Source of the DNA: Escherichia phage JK1
Sequence record: MZ436830.1
Direction: 5' to 3' (one strand)
Length of the DNA stretch: 64,000 bases
The translations under genes were made by a program, and so were the position numbers. This document shows, one piece after another, positions 57,108 to 62,538 of the stretch (within the stretch, counting starts at the first letter, position 1; each line of letters begins with the position of its first letter). Below the pieces are notes generated by a model. The model ran no database searches and was not told where the DNA came from. It saw nothing but the letters and a program-made list of their open reading frames with translations.

Positions 57108-57433
57108 TTAAACCATCCTTTAATACGTTGCCACAAAGTTTTCTGCTGAGCTTTGTTAACACCAATTGAACGAATAACTGGTTGAGATTCCTGGAATTCT
57201 TTATAATCAGCAAGGTAAATTTCGTAAGCTGCATCCGTAAATGAACTTATCGCTGCCATAAAATTATTGCGAATACCTACTGGAGCATCTTTACTTTCAC
57301 GAATAATCATGTATTTACCAGTCTTAATCTTTACGATAGTTCCAAGATAAGCTCCATGGTACCAAATATCCCAACCCTCTTGAGTAGGTTCTGCACAACG
57401 ACGAAGTTCATTGACAATTTCTAACTTGTTCAT
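57104..57433 (-). CDS. Hypothetical protein (109 aa)
   Basis: ORF directly downstream of motA. Confidence 0.6.
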
Positions 57434-57443
57434 TATTTATTCC

Positions 57444-58079
57444 TCACAGTTCAGATGCTACAGTGATTACTGCTTCAATGTTTTCTACTGAGCGTTTAAT
57501 GTCAAGATACACATTACCGTTTTTAGCGATTTTACATGACATTCCGATGTCAGTAAATTTCTGAATATGATGTTCCATCATTTTGTATCCAAAAATTCGC
57601 ATATTTCCATTGTTGTTAATTTCAAAATTACGAATTCCGTGAGTGCGTTTTTCTAAAATAGCAAGATAGTTACTGCGATAAGTTTCAACCTTTTTAAGAA
57701 CAAATCCATTTTCATCCAAAAGTTTTAACATGAGGTCTTTATCTTCTTCCATATCAGAAGTAATCTCGCGAGCTTTACGAGTTGCTCGTTTTTTCAGCAG
57801 TTCCGGAGCATTTTCCTGTGCGTATAAAGTTGCTGCGTTTGAAATAATATCCTGAGCTTCACCTGTAATGATTAATCCATCACCAGATTTCTCCACCAGG
57901 CCCTTTTTAATCAATACCCCAATATTACTATTAACTACTGCGTTACCTAAATCTGGATGCACCTCACGAACTTCTGCAGCTGTAATGAAATCTTTCTTAG
58001 CAATAGTAATTAAAATCGCAGCAGTTTTTTCATTCAGAACATCGTTAGAAGCTTTGATGATGTAAGTTACTTTAGACAT
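57444..58079 (-). CDS. motA: Middle-promoter transcription activator MotA
   Basis: 211 aa; matches remembered T4 MotA; early promoter upstream. Confidence 0.9.
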   Translation of the reverse strand: MSKVTYIIKASNDVLNEKTAAILITIAKKDFITAAEVREVHPDLGNAVVNSNIGVLIKKGLVEKSGDGLIITGEAQDIISNAATLYAQENAPELLKKRATRKAREITSDMEEDKDLMLKLLDENGFVLKKVETYRSNYLAILEKRTHGIRNFEINNNGNMRIFGYKMMEHHIQKFTDIGMSCKIAKNGNVYLDIKRSVENIEAVITVASEL

Positions 58080-58120
58080 TTTCTAATCTCCGTAATTCTG
58101 TATCAGTAGTTGATAGTTGT

Positions 58121-58150
58121 ATAGTACCACAGTATGCTTTGGTTGTAAAC
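58121..58150 (-). promoter_or_regulatory. Early promoter of motA (repeated cassette member)
   Basis: GTTTAC (58145-58150) -N18- TACTAT (58121-58126). Confidence 0.5.
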
Positions 58151-58160
58151 CGTTTTGTGA

Positions 58161-58201
58161 AAAAATTTTAAAATAAAAAAAGGGAGAGCCTCGGCTCTCC
58201 C
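58161..58201 (-). terminator. Intrinsic terminator between gene 52 unit and motA promoter
   Basis: GGGAGAGC-CGAG-GCUCUCCC hairpin followed by UUUUUUUAUUUU on - strand. Confidence 0.6.
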
Positions 58202-58206
58202 TAAAA

Positions 58207-58356
58207 TTACTGCATGACTGTGATAACTGTCATGATAACACGTTGAATTCCGAACGCAAGAAGACCTCCTGCTATGGCTGGAACAACGCCTAAACCCGCC
58301 AGTAAAATGCTACCAGATACTAATGCAGCGCTTGTAATACCAATGAATGGACTCAT
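58207..58356 (-). CDS. Small hydrophobic membrane peptide (49 aa)
   Basis: Not in ORF track; ATGA-coupled to gene 52 stop; followed by hairpin terminator. Confidence 0.5.
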   Translation of the reverse strand: MSPFIGITSAALVSGSILLAGLGVVPAIAGGLLAFGIQRVIMTVITVMQ

Positions 58357-59681
58357 TTGATTTCCTCTAAATCTTTGGTGTATTCGGTAACTACATCAGT
58401 AGTTTTCCAATATTCGTTTTCTTCTTTTTTAGCTTTAGCTTCTTCAGCAAGTTTCTTTGCTTCGTCGGAAGTCATATGAAAAATATTCATTCCAACTAGT
58501 TTATCAACATAAGAAGAATACATATCGATTTTCGAAAGTTCTTCGGTCAGTTCTTTACGAGTTTTACCCTGTACAACAATTTCACCTGAAATTACTTTCT
58601 TAATGAAATGTGCCTTGGCAAAGGCTAAACGAAAAGCTGACTCAGTTTCTTTAATTTTGTTATCAATTCGTTTTTGGACATAAGTTTTACGAACTTCGAC
58701 GAAGTCTTTGATTAAATCAACTACGTTATCGTAAACTTGCAGTTTTCCTTTCTCATTAATAACCGTAATATTCTGAGAACGACGCTCAATCAACCCGAAG
58801 TCTTTCATAATTTTTGCATGGCGTTCTTCTTCATTATCGCTCAAAGAATATTCTTTGCGGAATTTAACTTTAAAGCCGAAGCCGTGCTCACCACAAGCAT
58901 CATCCCATGTAATGAAGCCTTTATCTTCAAGCGGGTCTAAGATTTTACTCACATAAGTTTCACGATCATACTTATACGGAATCTCAGTGATATGCATTTG
59001 AGTTCGTGAAGTAAACTTATATGTTCCACGAATTTCATATTGCCCATCAATTTCAACGACTTCACCACGAAATTCTGGGAATTCTACTTTCGGTTTAGTT
59101 ACTTTCTTTCCTTGAAGAGCTTGCAGTACAGCTTTCTTAACAGAAGAAACGCTATGAGGAAGAATGTAAGTTGCATAACCAGTTGCAATACCGGAAACGC
59201 CATTAAGAAGAACAGTAGGAATAATAGGCAAATAGAAAGCAGGCGGAATGTGTTCTTTATCTTGATGTACTGGAGCATATTCAGTATCTTTATATACGTT
59301 ATAGAAATTTTTACTTACACGAGCAAAAATATAACGACTTGCTGCTGCTTTTTGAACGGTACGAGAACCAAAGTTTCCTTGACCATCTAACAAAGGAAAG
59401 TTATTATTCCAAGTATTAGCCATCAAAGCTCCCGCATCTTGTGCAGAGTTTTCGCCATGGTGATATCCAAGGTCCGCTACACCGCCTGCAATAGAAGCGA
59501 GTTTGTGAAACTTATCTTTATTTCCTCGTGCCAAATCAAGAGCTCGAGCAATAACAAATCGTTGAACTGGCTTAAATCCATCAATCATATTTGGGATAGC
59601 ACGATTTTCAACCGTGTACATAGCATAAGCCAATGCTTCATTATCAATGATACTTTTTAAATCGCGATTATTCAGTTGCAT
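58353..59681 (-). CDS. 52: DNA topoisomerase II medium subunit gp52
   Basis: 442 aa; GyrA-like N-terminal region; synteny. Confidence 0.9.
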   Translation of the reverse strand: MQLNNRDLKSIIDNEALAYAMYTVENRAIPNMIDGFKPVQRFVIARALDLARGNKDKFHKLASIAGGVADLGYHHGENSAQDAGALMANTWNNNFPLLDGQGNFGSRTVQKAAASRYIFARVSKNFYNVYKDTEYAPVHQDKEHIPPAFYLPIIPTVLLNGVSGIATGYATYILPHSVSSVKKAVLQALQGKKVTKPKVEFPEFRGEVVEIDGQYEIRGTYKFTSRTQMHITEIPYKYDRETYVSKILDPLEDKGFITWDDACGEHGFGFKVKFRKEYSLSDNEEERHAKIMKDFGLIERRSQNITVINEKGKLQVYDNVVDLIKDFVEVRKTYVQKRIDNKIKETESAFRLAFAKAHFIKKVISGEIVVQGKTRKELTEELSKIDMYSSYVDKLVGMNIFHMTSDEAKKLAEEAKAKKEENEYWKTTDVVTEYTKDLEEIK

Positions 59682-59685
59682 AAAT

Positions 59686-59826
59686 TTACCATACTAGTGA
59701 ATGTAGTGCCATAATAACATCAGAAATGAAAAGCACGACTTGAATTAATCCGAACATTACTCCATAATATAGTGCTACCAATAAAGCAGCAAGGGCTAAT
59801 GAATAGCCCAAGATTTTCTTAATCAT
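59686..59826 (-). CDS. Small hydrophobic membrane peptide (46 aa)
   Basis: Not in ORF track; MIKKILGYSLALAALLVALYYGVMFGLIQVV... Confidence 0.45.
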   Translation of the reverse strand: MIKKILGYSLALAALLVALYYGVMFGLIQVVLFISDVIMALHSLVW

Positions 59827-59977
59827 TAGTAGATAACAACACAAATGTTAAATATGCACACATACCCTGGGCTAAAGCTTGTGAAAACACACTGCTGGCA
59901 TCGATACAGATAGTTAAAACACATGCTACTATCCAACAAATAAATGAAATAACTCCTAATAATTTTGCGATATTCAT
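59819..59977 (-). CDS. Small membrane protein (52 aa), Ac-like
   Basis: ATG 59977 (MNIAKLLGVISFICWIVACVL...); size and position match T4 ac, identity unverified. Confidence 0.5.
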   Translation of the reverse strand: MNIAKLLGVISFICWIVACVLTICIDASSVFSQALAQGMCAYLTFVLLSTND

Positions 59978-59987
59978 AATATTCTCC

Positions 59988-60143
59988 TCAACTATTTTTA
60001 GAACCAATGTACGCGAATAATGATAAAATCGCTAATACGCCCTGAGCTGATGCTTGCAAAAATACTGAAGTTTCTCCAGTTATTACTGTTCCGATGCATA
60101 AAAAGAACCAACAGAAAAAGGCTATACCGTGAACAAATTTCAT
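59988..60143 (-). CDS. Small membrane protein (51 aa), paralog of adjacent Ac-like ORF
   Basis: Not in ORF track; shares ...VF.QA.AQG... core with neighbour. Confidence 0.45.
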   Translation of the reverse strand: MKFVHGIAFFCWFFLCIGTVITGETSVFLQASAQGVLAILSLFAYIGSKNS

Positions 60144-60150
60144 ATTTTCC

Positions 60151-60231
60151 TCACTGGCGTCCGAAGACGCCTTTGGTTTTAAGATTGTTACGATAGAACT
60201 GCATCACATGTTCGTTATAGAAATTACTCAT
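60151..60231 (-). CDS. stp: Stp peptide (26 aa)
   Basis: Not in ORF track; translation [26 protein letters not shown] matches remembered T4 Stp apart from one residue. Confidence 0.7.
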
Positions 60232-60686
60232 TAATATGCCTGCAAAACAAATTTAAAGTTATCAGCCAACATACGATTCATTTCTTCAAGTGTTTGATAC
60301 TCAGAATGATGATTACGAGTAAACGCTAAAGCTAACTGTCCTTTTCCAAATCCCGTCGTCAGAGGTTTCATCTTAGAAGCAGGCAGATAAAATACTGTGT
60401 ATGGAACATTGTTATTTGCAATAGTACGTGCAAGCTGAGACCGACGTTGACGAATATGACTTAGAACTGCACTGAATCCTTGCTTAGAACGCTGATTACC
60501 TACATAAAATCGTGCTGACACACATGGATTACTAAATGGACCACCGAGTTTACTCACTAAAAAGTAAAATCCAGGTTTAGATAAAATATCTTTATGCGGA
60601 GTTCCCAAAAACCACTCACCACCCTTGATTGTACCAATAACAGTAGCGCCTGCGTTGTTCAGATCAGTAACAGTCATGTATTTCAT
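60231..60686 (-). CDS. ndd: Nucleoid disruption protein Ndd
   Basis: 151 aa from ATG 60686 ([11 protein letters not shown]...). Confidence 0.85.
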
Positions 60687-60746
60687 ATTAATTTCCTCTA
60701 AATTATTTTCTACTCCAAGGCCGCATGAATACACGCGGCCATTAAA

Positions 60747-60962
60747 TTAATCGTCGCAGTCGACGCTCAATTCCCAAAACTCTTCTACGGTATAAGTTTC
60801 AGTATCATTTTCAATATAGAAACGTTCATTACTGTTATTTGCTAAAGTAGCATTAACTGTCGGTTTCTCGCTAGTGCTCTTAAGAGGTGAAATACGAATT
60901 AACTGATCACCGTTATCTAAACAGAAAATTTCACCAACTTTTACATCTTTAAAGATTTTCAT
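60747..60962 (-). CDS. Hypothetical protein (71 aa)
   Basis: ORF with GAGGTG RBS. Confidence 0.55.
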   Translation of the reverse strand: MKIFKDVKVGEIFCLDNGDQLIRISPLKSTSEKPTVNATLANNSNERFYIENDTETYTVEEFWELSVDCDD

Positions 60963-60970
60963 AATTCACC

Positions 60971-61078
60971 TCAAGGAGTATAAAATCCGAATGCAGTTGT
61001 TGACCATCCCATCCAATATGGAAAATTTGCACCAATGTAAAACATAAGAATATAAAACCAAATGTTTAGTAAATTCAT
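60971..61078 (-). CDS. Small hydrophobic peptide (35 aa)
   Basis: Not in ORF track; aromatic/hydrophobic; coupled to upstream stop. Confidence 0.35.
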   Translation of the reverse strand: MNLLNIWFYILMFYIGANFPYWMGWSTTAFGFYTP

Positions 61079-61275
61079 CATTTTACACCATTCCAAATTG
61101 TTTCAACTACGGATTTTAAACCATTTTGATGAATATCCATTCCGACTACTGCCATCAAATAGATTCCAACTACAACTGAACCTAAGGCAAAAATCAGCAT
61201 GAAAATGAATAAAGCCGGAAAAATATTATCGAAAAACCATTCAATAAATGTAAAAGCACTGCGTTTACGCTTCAT
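61078..61275 (-). CDS. Small membrane protein (65 aa)
   Basis: ATG 61275 with GAGGAAAAT RBS; two predicted TM segments. Confidence 0.5.
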   Translation of the reverse strand: MKRKRSAFTFIEWFFDNIFPALFIFMLIFALGSVVVGIYLMAVVGMDIHQNGLKSVVETIWNGVK

Positions 61276-61282
61276 ATTTTCC

Positions 61283-61396
61283 TCACATAAATCCAAAGTA
61301 AACGTTTAATACATCAATCATTAAAACGATTGGGAATATACTCAAAACTATTAGTATTATAACTACATTCCATATAGCTTTAATAATCTTTTTCAT
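61283..61396 (-). CDS. Small membrane peptide (37 aa)
   Basis: ATG 61396 after GGAGG leader; single TM helix. Confidence 0.45.
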   Translation of the reverse strand: MKKIIKAIWNVVIILIVLSIFPIVLMIDVLNVYFGFM

Positions 61397-61424
61397 TTTC
61401 TGTTCCTCCGTAGTTGATAGGGTA

Positions 61425-61454
61425 ATAGTACCACGGAAGAACAGTCTTGTAAAC
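61425..61454 (-). promoter_or_regulatory. Early promoter (repeated cassette member)
   Basis: GTTTAC (61449-61454) -N18- TACTAT (61425-61430), leader CAACUACGGAGG. Confidence 0.45.
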
Positions 61455-61639
61455 AACTTTTTTAAAAATATTCGTAATAAATGTGAATACCAACTACTAC
61501 CGCTGAAACCTGTGCAACCCACCACGCACAAGCAATAAGTACAGAATTCAAAATTTTCATAATAACCTCATCACAAAAGTAAATGTTAAACAAATTAATG
61601 GAATACTAATTAACCAAACAAAACACCACCATAATGAAC

Positions 61640-61903
61640 TCATAGTTCAATCTCAATGATTTCCAGGTGTTTTTGTTTTATTGCCTTTTTAACACAATCA
61701 TGGACTAAATATGACCATGAATCATTATATTCTCCATTAACTAATCGTTGGAGATCTTCACGTGATGATAAGTAAGGTTGATCTGATTCCCATTTTGATA
61801 AAAATACTGCAGTAAAAATATCTCCTTCACCTGTAGTTGAAGTCGTAAATGCAATAAATTCACCGGTAATTTTATGTTTAGCGTAATAAAATTTAAATTT
61901 CAT
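61640..61903 (-). CDS. Hypothetical protein (87 aa)
   Basis: ATG 61903 after GGAGGAG leader (ORF-track start further upstream lacks RBS). Confidence 0.55.
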   Translation of the reverse strand: MKFKFYYAKHKITGEFIAFTTSTTGEGDIFTAVFLSKWESDQPYLSSREDLQRLVNGEYNDSWSYLVHDCVKKAIKQKHLEIIEIEL

Positions 61904-61930
61904 TTTTACTCCTCCGTAGCTGATAGTTGT

Positions 61931-61960
61931 ATAGTACCACGGTCCTTGTGGTATGTAAAC
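61931..61960 (-). promoter_or_regulatory. Early promoter (repeated cassette member)
   Basis: GTTTAC (61955-61960) -N18- TACTAT (61931-61936), leader CAGCUACGGAGGAG. Confidence 0.45.
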
Positions 61961-61980
61961 CATTTTGTGAAATTTTTTTT

Positions 61981-62538
61981 TTAAATGGAAAGATACCATC
62001 CGTTGTAGTTGCTTTTTCTTACAACCTTACGAAGGTCTTCTCTGTCACCGATGAACTTCGGAGTGTACTGGATGACACCTGGATGAATTTCTTTAGTGTT
62101 GAATATAATTATACAGTCAGCGACTTGATGATTTAGAATGGGCCCTAGATTTATTCCAGAACCGTATGGATACTCTCCGCTGCATCCTGTTGTTACAGAA
62201 ATCCAACGTGAGTCAGTTTGATGTGTCTTAACTTCTACACGAAGCCCGCAGTATCTTGGATGCGCCAATACATCCCATGCGTATGTATACGGGTCATTAA
62301 CATCCTCTTGGCCTTTGTTAACATACCCGCTTAGCCAATCTGCTACAAAAAACTCTGCGTACACAGCGATACGACATCTTTCAATAACTTCTGCTTTATC
62401 CTGGTTCGGGTTTTGTTTTAAAGAGTATCTTGCTGTATCAGCAATTTTGACCTTCATTTCACTAGTCAAGTCACTGTTCGATAGGGTAAATGTCGGAATC
62501 TGAAATAGTCTCTGTAAACCCGGATTCGTTTTCTGCAT
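61981..62538 (-). CDS. denB: Endonuclease IV candidate
   Basis: 185 aa, size and position (between ndd cluster and rIIB) match T4 denB; AAGGAAAG RBS. Confidence 0.65.
   Translation of the reverse strand: MQKTNPGLQRLFQIPTFTLSNSDLTSEMKVKIADTARYSLKQNPNQDKAEVIERCRIAVYAEFFVADWLSGYVNKGQEDVNDPYTYAWDVLAHPRYCGLRVEVKTHQTDSRWISVTTGCSGEYPYGSGINLGPILNHQVADCIIIFNTKEIHPGVIQYTPKFIGDREDLRKVVRKSNYNGWYLSI

Follow-up and report, generated by a model that had tools for sequence, protein, structure and literature searches.

Two tandem Ac-family genes between stp and gene 52.1 in Escherichia phage JK1

In the T4 reference genome the ac gene, a classical marker whose mechanism is under debate (a block of AcrAB-TolC was proposed in 2025), lies directly after stp. 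In the 64,000 nucleotides (nt) of Escherichia phage JK1 analysed here (record MZ436830.1, hereafter the window), a further open reading frame (ORF) separates the two. Is this a second ac gene, and if so, where does it come from and what might it do? A first-pass annotation, made from the letters alone, had placed four very short ORFs between gene 52 and ndd, and had read two of them, of 52 and 51 amino acids (aa), as a duplicated Ac-like pair next to stp. All four ORFs are there on the minus strand with ATG starts, and so are the ribosome-binding sites (RBS) or start–stop coupling assigned to them: GAGGAG, GAGGAA, an 8-nt overlap of ac and 52.1, and TAATG. The names given to gene 52, ndd and stp are correct, and both ORFs are Ac-like. 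The four were absent from the ORF track used at that stage owing to its length cut-off, although the genes are annotated in public genomes. There are indeed two Ac copies, but the 52-aa ORF is T4 ac itself, and the one gene that T4 lacks is the 51-aa ORF. We refer to the two as acA and acB:

59819..59977, minus strand: ac ('acA'), 52 aa, the T4 Ac orthologue and acridine-sensitivity determinant, in the common +Thr form
59984..59989, minus strand: Shine-Dalgarno sequence (SD) of acA, GAGGAG, overlapping the acB stop codon; downstream half of a repeat of RBS and ATGAA
59988..60143, minus strand: second Ac gene ('acB'), 51 aa, TGETSV-type, absent from T4; a 166-nt insertion relative to T4
60148..60152, minus strand: SD of acB, GAGGA, overlapping the stp stop codon; upstream half of the repeat of RBS and ATGAA
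60156..60171, minus strand: GGCGUCUUCGGACGCC hairpin with a UUCG loop, within the last stp codons and 3 nt upstream of the acB SD

Bases 57400–61700 are 97–98% identical over their full length to many T4-like phages (Tequatrovirus). The region is the motA–52–ndd–denB segment, with every gene on the minus strand and a gene-by-gene match to the T4 annotation across the block. Judged by its sequence, the block is the ndd–stp–ac–52.1–52–motA.1 early-gene region of Tequatrovirus, in which the Ac family is represented twice, in tandem.

The two Ac-family genes

Aligned with T4 Ac (NP_049877; PF26944 Phage_T4_Ac; PHROG 2501), acA is the same protein save for one Thr inserted near the C-terminus, and proteins at least 99% identical to acA occur in 329 phage records. 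It matches PHROG 2501 over residues 1–51 (E=3.7e-25), with GAGGAG 6 nt before the ORF. The acB product matches the same family over residues 1–50 (E=4.9e-26), both copies thus being covered end to end at E of about 1e-25, and GAGGAA lies 4 nt before its ORF. BLASTP aligns the two proteins without gaps, 17 of 40 residues being identical (43%, E=6e-10). Their Smith–Waterman score is 85, compared with 24.1±4.9 and a maximum of 52 for 5,000 shuffles of one partner, none of which reaches 85. The similarity is not a matter of hydrophobic composition alone, given that the region's other small membrane ORFs score only 14–33 against either Ac protein. The shared core that the first-pass annotation had picked out (VFSQALAQG in one product, VFLQASAQG in the other) is present, and in the family alignment the columns S, V, F, Q, A, Q and G are invariant (an SVF.QA..QG core). 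BLASTP, Smith–Waterman scores, the common PHROG 2501 match and the GenBank annotation together identify acA and acB as the tandem paralogs they had been taken for.

Family membership is also seen in the combination of a full-length profile match, a size near 50 aa, a pair of hydrophobic helices plus the core, and a location between ndd/stp and 52.1/52. Precomputed PF26944 (Phage_T4_Ac) matches exist for two proteins that are 71–76% identical to acB by BLASTP (P0004 and P0007) and for P0009, a metagenomic protein described below. Our own Pfam scan, with a release older than PF26944, and an NCBIfam scan gave no match for acA or acB. In its length, two-helix plan, SVF-Q-A-QG core with the required Gly and stp–52.1 location, acB resembles T4 Ac. 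It differs in its identity of 35–43%, in having TGETSV where T4 Ac has IDASSV, in a basic SKNS tail and in the lack of an overlap with 52.1.

Both products had been described at first as single-helix membrane peptides, and this part of the description did not hold. AlphaFold2 models, built from a shallow family alignment of 9 sequences, give acB helices at residues 2–22 and 27–50 with a break at GETS (mean predicted local distance difference test score, pLDDT, 76), and acA helices at 3–24 and 28–51 with a break at I25–A27 (pLDDT 77). A published ESMFold model of T4 Ac agrees, having two helices joined at D26–A27 (bioRxiv 10.1101/2025.06.30.662393). By hydropathy, helix 1 is strongly hydrophobic and helix 2 carries the invariant polar stripe S-V-F-x-Q-A-x-x-Q-G. 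Both Ac proteins are thus best read as predicted helical hairpins in the inner membrane, each about 50 aa long.

Is acB a genuine gene? Proteins at least 95% identical to its product occur in 47 records (at least 99% identical in 39 of them), and at the DNA level 49 records have the gene with 95% identity or more. Pairwise ratios of nonsynonymous to synonymous substitution rates (dN/dS) among five acB-type genes are 0.12–0.68, which at the level of sequence shows acB-type genes to be under purifying selection. On conservation, dN/dS and the RBS we reject the view that acB is a chance non-coding ORF. In phages vB_Eco_Geo and Aplg8 two adjacent 'acridine resistance' coding sequences are annotated exactly at the positions of acA and acB, and the second copy is in this sense already known, being annotated in about 50 of about 530 T4-like records, among them ECML-134, and in many of these the label 'acridine resistance' appears twice. 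We found no discussion of a duplicated ac in the literature searched, although older subscription papers may mention one.

The GGCGUCUUCGGACGCC hairpin has a minimum free energy of -12.2 kcal/mol (z=-2.1). T4 and RB51 conserve it, whereas the T2-type haplotype has lost it.

Proposed action of the Ac proteins

Deletion or mutation of ac makes T4 resistant to acriflavine, and E. coli cells that express Ac become more sensitive to ampicillin and to acriflavine, with a 3-log drop for the latter; the +Thr variant of phage PP01, which is the form in the window, behaves like wild type, and G38R abolishes the effect of T4 Ac (bioRxiv 10.1101/2025.06.30.662393). The same preprint proposes that membrane-located Ac blocks AcrAB-TolC, and a 2026 PNAS paper restates the block as an assumption (PMC13250531). 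The preprint's survey of homologues is made up of BLASTN matches of 93–100% identity and mentions neither a second copy nor the TGETSV type (bioRxiv 10.1101/2025.06.30.662393). G38 of T4 Ac is the invariant core Gly and corresponds to G35 in acB, and therefore the part of Ac that is known to matter is the part that the paralogs share.

By extension from T4 Ac, both proteins would be made early from the ndd-to-52 transcript and would insert in the host inner membrane. There they would cause acridines and other efflux substrates to build up inside the cell, with binding and blocking of AcrAB-TolC as the foremost proposal. The two copies may target different host variants or pumps, or may act jointly. 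That acB acts like T4 Ac, through an efflux block, is a tentative suggestion by analogy, to which we give somewhat less than even weight.

AcrZ, a 49-aa E. coli small protein that binds AcrB, offers a possible functional analogy, in that both are membrane peptides of about 50 aa, with Ac only proposed to act on AcrAB-TolC. AcrZ is, however, a host pump accessory and not an inhibitor, and it has a single helix where the Ac proteins have two predicted ones. AcrZ chains are present in the Protein Data Bank, and a search of its sequences with the Ac family profile returned no chain at E up to 10; with no NCBIfam match either, these searches detect no homology between Ac and AcrZ.

A different mechanism dispenses with an efflux-pump target: the Ac proteins would form small pores by oligomerising, or would loosen the inner membrane, which dyes would then cross more quickly. 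Silver's classical 'uptake' view (1960s) is of this kind, and the early literature does describe increased dye uptake (both summarised or cited in bioRxiv 10.1101/2025.06.30.662393). The polar residues (Q, Q, G, S) conserved along helix 2 of both modelled hairpins could form the lining of a channel or promote self-association, and sensitisation to ampicillin fits general envelope damage as well as it fits an efflux block. Yet the preprint reports no drug-free toxicity of expressed Ac, and its authors read the loss of the effect through the single change G38R as high specificity. We consider such a mechanism rather unlikely for the Ac proteins in general, and rate a pore or permeability action of acB the same way; the weight that is left for acB goes to some other action.

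Distribution and history of the two types

The TGET(S/T)V turn followed by F.QA..QG that marks acB is also found in the single Ac of RB51, RB33, Sf23 and pEC-M719 (Tequatrovirus), and in that of RB69 and JK36 (Mosigvirus), JS98 (Dhakavirus) and a Klebsiella Jiaodavirus phage. RB69, JK36 and F2 carry TGETTVFQQAVSQG, JS98 has TGETSVISQA and Klebsiella phage KLB2 has TGETSVISQALAQG; F2 is filed under Tequatrovirus, and its Ac is nearly identical to RB69 Ac. T4 Ac and acA have IDASSV where the acB type has TGET(S/T)V. The acB product is 70–76% identical in protein, and the gene about 86–91% in DNA, to the single Ac of the four Tequatrovirus phages, and 38–44% identical to that of RB69, JK36, JS98 and Jiaodavirus, with the same neighbours. 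In RB51, RB33, Sf23, RB69, JK36, JS98 and the Jiaodavirus phages the gene stands alone and overlaps or abuts 52.1, whereas in the window acB lies upstream of the T4-type copy.

Searched by tblastn, acB gives graded identities (100, 76, 68, 58 and 47%) that extend to other genera, whereas acA gives a closed cluster, in which 459 records reach at least 80% identity and the range of 60–80% is empty. From this difference we conclude that, on sequence comparison, acB represents the widely shared type of Ac and that T4 Ac is the divergent one. The metagenomic P0009 (locus L013), a single-copy Ac, combines TGE with an acA-like CAYLTF and bridges both types. A word-indexed protein search with Ac returned only 7 close relatives, and a profile search of 1.84 billion representative proteins returned 8 matches, six of which are Ac proteins of 48–52 aa, and no bacterial homologue. 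Matches to P0012 (2254 aa, E=7e-5) and P0014 (859 aa, E=5e-4), which consist of repeated 16-residue stretches only, were treated as spurious. These stretches cover the TGETSVF…QA segment and are probably repeats of similar composition.

Junction-specific megablast counts over 50,697 phage records separate four arrangements of the locus:

T4-type, stp–acA junction: 360 records
Two-copy, acB–acA junction: 50 records
RB51-type, acB–52.1 junction: 31 records
T2-type relic: 31 records

The three haplotypes that bear acA sum to 441, fitting the 459 acA carriers found by tblastn. Earlier counts of 418 T4-type and 152 relic junctions had joined separate pieces and were replaced by the 360 and 31 given here.

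Relative to T4, the whole of acB lies within a clean insertion of 166 nt, and both edges of this insertion carry the head GAGGA(A/G)AAT(AT)TATGAA (RBS and start). Such heads are what tandem duplication of a unit of RBS and gene would leave, and they would also provide homology for a later precise deletion. In T2, SHFML-11 and BCPEco_001 the reading frame of stp continues at its 3' end into the last 18 nt of acB, after which come an intact acB–acA spacer and acA, an order that only a deletion in a two-copy arrangement can have produced. The acA genes of T4 and of the two-copy phages are 96–100% identical, whereas acA and acB have only about 40% identity with each other, which means that the copies would have split long before the phages did. 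Given that the split of the copies appears so much older, the single-copy state of T4 is most likely due to loss of acB, by deletion between the two repeats of RBS and ATGAA. An old tandem duplication of the unit of RBS and ac would have been followed by strong divergence of the downstream copy. T4-type phages would then have lost acB through recombination between the GAGGA(A/G)AAT..ATGAA repeats, T2-type phages would have lost most of acB plus the 3' end of stp, and RB51-type phages would hold the acB type only.

Taken together, we think it probable that the window carries a two-copy haplotype that goes back to an old duplication followed by lineage-specific losses, and that its products are hairpin Ac proteins, which may act as T4 Ac does. 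Several points weigh against this. The direction of the indel, loss in T4 as opposed to gain in the two-copy phages, is inferred, and the single-copy P0009, with its TGE and CAYLTF, means that an acA-like lineage could have existed separately and recombined in. The 'acridine resistance' label on acB and other TGETSV-type coding sequences is by similarity alone, the block of AcrAB-TolC by Ac is a proposal, and the AlphaFold2 models, from so shallow an alignment, are of moderate confidence. Finally, the Ac proteins are undetected in the T4 proteome: transcripts of motA.1, 52.1, ac, stp and ndd.2–ndd.6 are early, and none of their proteins was detected (PMC9697503 Table S2). Shotgun mass spectrometry is expected to miss tiny hydrophobic peptides, and such a result is not a sign of absence; for this reason, and because ac and stp have genetic phenotypes, we do not read it as a refutation.

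Alternatively, the T4 state could be the original one, and a T4-type phage could have gained acB from an RB51-like phage by illegitimate recombination ('allele stacking'). Within one genus the polymorphic Ac locus occurs in acA-only, acB-only and mixed forms, the ndd–52 interval looks prone to gain and loss of small genes (a 52.1 fragment and further ORFs in JS98, a different small ORF in L013), and the intermediate P0009 shows acA-like sequences as single genes. However, no close single-copy donor is seen, the nearest being the RB51-like genes at 70–76% protein and about 86–91% DNA identity, and homologous recombination of acA-only with acB-only genomes cannot stack the genes. The near-identical heads on both copies and the derivation of the T2-type haplotype from the two-copy arrangement also speak against a gain, which we consider unlikely. 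It is very improbable that acB is a redundant duplicate in decay that yields no functional protein: its repeated loss (360 T4-type and 31 T2-type records) and the good growth of T4, the laboratory standard, without it would fit, but its frame is intact with a strong SD in 50 of 50 two-copy records (with DNA identity of at least 99% in 41 of these), acB-type genes have dN/dS values below 1 throughout, and this is the sole Ac type kept in four genera.

Neighbouring genes and the meaning of the second copy

The other genes and features of this region of the window are as follows:

58181..58202, minus strand: intrinsic terminator-like hairpin and T-run after motA.1; 9-bp stem with 6 GC pairs, then TTTTTTTATTT
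58207..58356, minus strand: motA.1, 49-aa hydrophobic protein; 48/49 residues as in T4 MotA.1; PHROG 3487, E=1e-30; grand average of hydropathy 1.61
58353..59681, minus strand: gene 52, topoisomerase II medium subunit; 442-aa ORF, labelled gene 52 in T4 and relatives
59686..59826, minus strand: gene 52.1, 46-aa membrane protein, 100% identical to T4 gp52.1
60151..60231, minus strand: stp, 26-aa peptide; 25/26 residues as in T4 Stp, H5Y
60231..60686, minus strand: ndd, nucleoid disruption protein; 1 residue different from T4 Ndd
60971..61078, minus strand: ndd.2, 35 aa (36 aa from the preceding ATG); PHROG 4135, E=3e-23; matches T4 Ndd.2
61078..61275, minus strand: intact 65-aa gene equivalent to T4 ndd.3 plus ndd.2a; Pfam DUF7248, E=4e-20; PHROG 2401
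61283..61396, minus strand: ndd.4, 37 aa; PHROG 3098, E=5e-21; GGAGGAA before the ATG

The further tiny ORFs that the first-pass annotation had noticed after ndd and before motA are therefore real genes, namely motA.1, ndd.2, ndd.2a/ndd.3 and ndd.4. Located upstream of gene 52, gp52.1 matches DUF7396 (PF24129) over its full length (E=6e-23, 81.1 bits against a cut-off of 27) and PHROG 3595 (E=1e-25), and 52.1 starts within ac, the two genes sharing 8 nt (AATGATTAA). Stp, 26 aa long and encoded directly after ndd with its start codon within TAATG at the ndd stop, matches PF08133 (Nuclease_act; E=3e-20, 71.5 bits against a gathering cut-off of 25) and PHROG 6763. T4 Stp inhibits EcoprrI and activates the host PrrC anticodon nuclease. 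The window Stp is like it in 25 of 26 residues and in its location after ndd, and differs in H5Y and in being followed by acB instead of ac. In the T2-type relic, stp encodes a 28-aa variant whose tail comes from the last acB codons (31 records; L014 432–518 in BCPEco_001).

The start of motA.1 overlaps the gene 52 stop (ATGA), and the hairpin at 58181..58202, at a place matching a terminator annotated in phage Aplg8, is likely where the transcription unit from ndd through 52 to motA.1 ends. The 65-aa gene is split into ndd.3 and ndd.2a in the T4 reference by the loss of 1 nt right behind its ATG (ATGAA-CGT as opposed to ATGAAGCGT), a split that is a frameshift or a sequencing legacy. The T4 annotation gives ndd.4 42 aa by starting it at an ATG further upstream. 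In the window ACG stands in place of this ATG, and the downstream start codon has GGAGGAA before it, hence the 37-aa form is likely the real product. Three minus-strand sites with TTTACA, 17 nt and TACTAT, with TG before the second hexamer, lie upstream of ndd.4 (61425–61453), of motA (58121–58149) and of the gene at 61640–61999 (61931–61959). We take them to resemble T4 early promoters, as a pattern match only: in total, promoter-like sites are not more frequent than in shuffles.

In other genomes the ndd–52 interval holds still other small genes. JS98 (L009 647–820, 1061–1135 and 1196–1357) has the 52.1 fragment and extra small hydrophobic ORFs, and more are found in L010 (737–910) and L013 (720–902), several of all these ORFs being unannotated. 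A 57-aa ORF (MRTFFVMGY…) is common to JS98 and the Klebsiella phage, and a 52/53-aa ORF (MIIIVFIE…) to JS98 and a metagenomic contig. The interval looks like an exchange hot spot for small membrane genes in T-even genera.

What the present analysis adds, T4 Ac as the odd one out, the four haplotypes and the evidence that acB was lost in T4 and T2, is of modest interest. Work based on T4 and on BLASTN matches of at least 93% identity covers one branch of Ac only. Several other genera have only the second branch as their Ac, and in about one-tenth of T4-like phages it stands beside the T4-type ac. Phages with acA only, with acB only, with both and with the deletion relic form a ready comparison set. 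If small phage peptides disable efflux pumps, natural variants would be probes of such pumps and relevant to combinations of phages and antibiotics. The T4 reference is probably without a gene that its ancestors had. A more far-reaching possibility, which we consider unlikely, is that the TGETSV-type acB is the ancestral, genus-spanning envelope effector of T-even phages and T4 Ac a neofunctionalised duplicate, with the pair acting on different targets (for example different resistance-nodulation-division pumps or host alleles) or as a hetero-oligomer. If acB were indeed ancestral, 60 years of acridine work on T4 would reflect the derived half of an original two-gene module.

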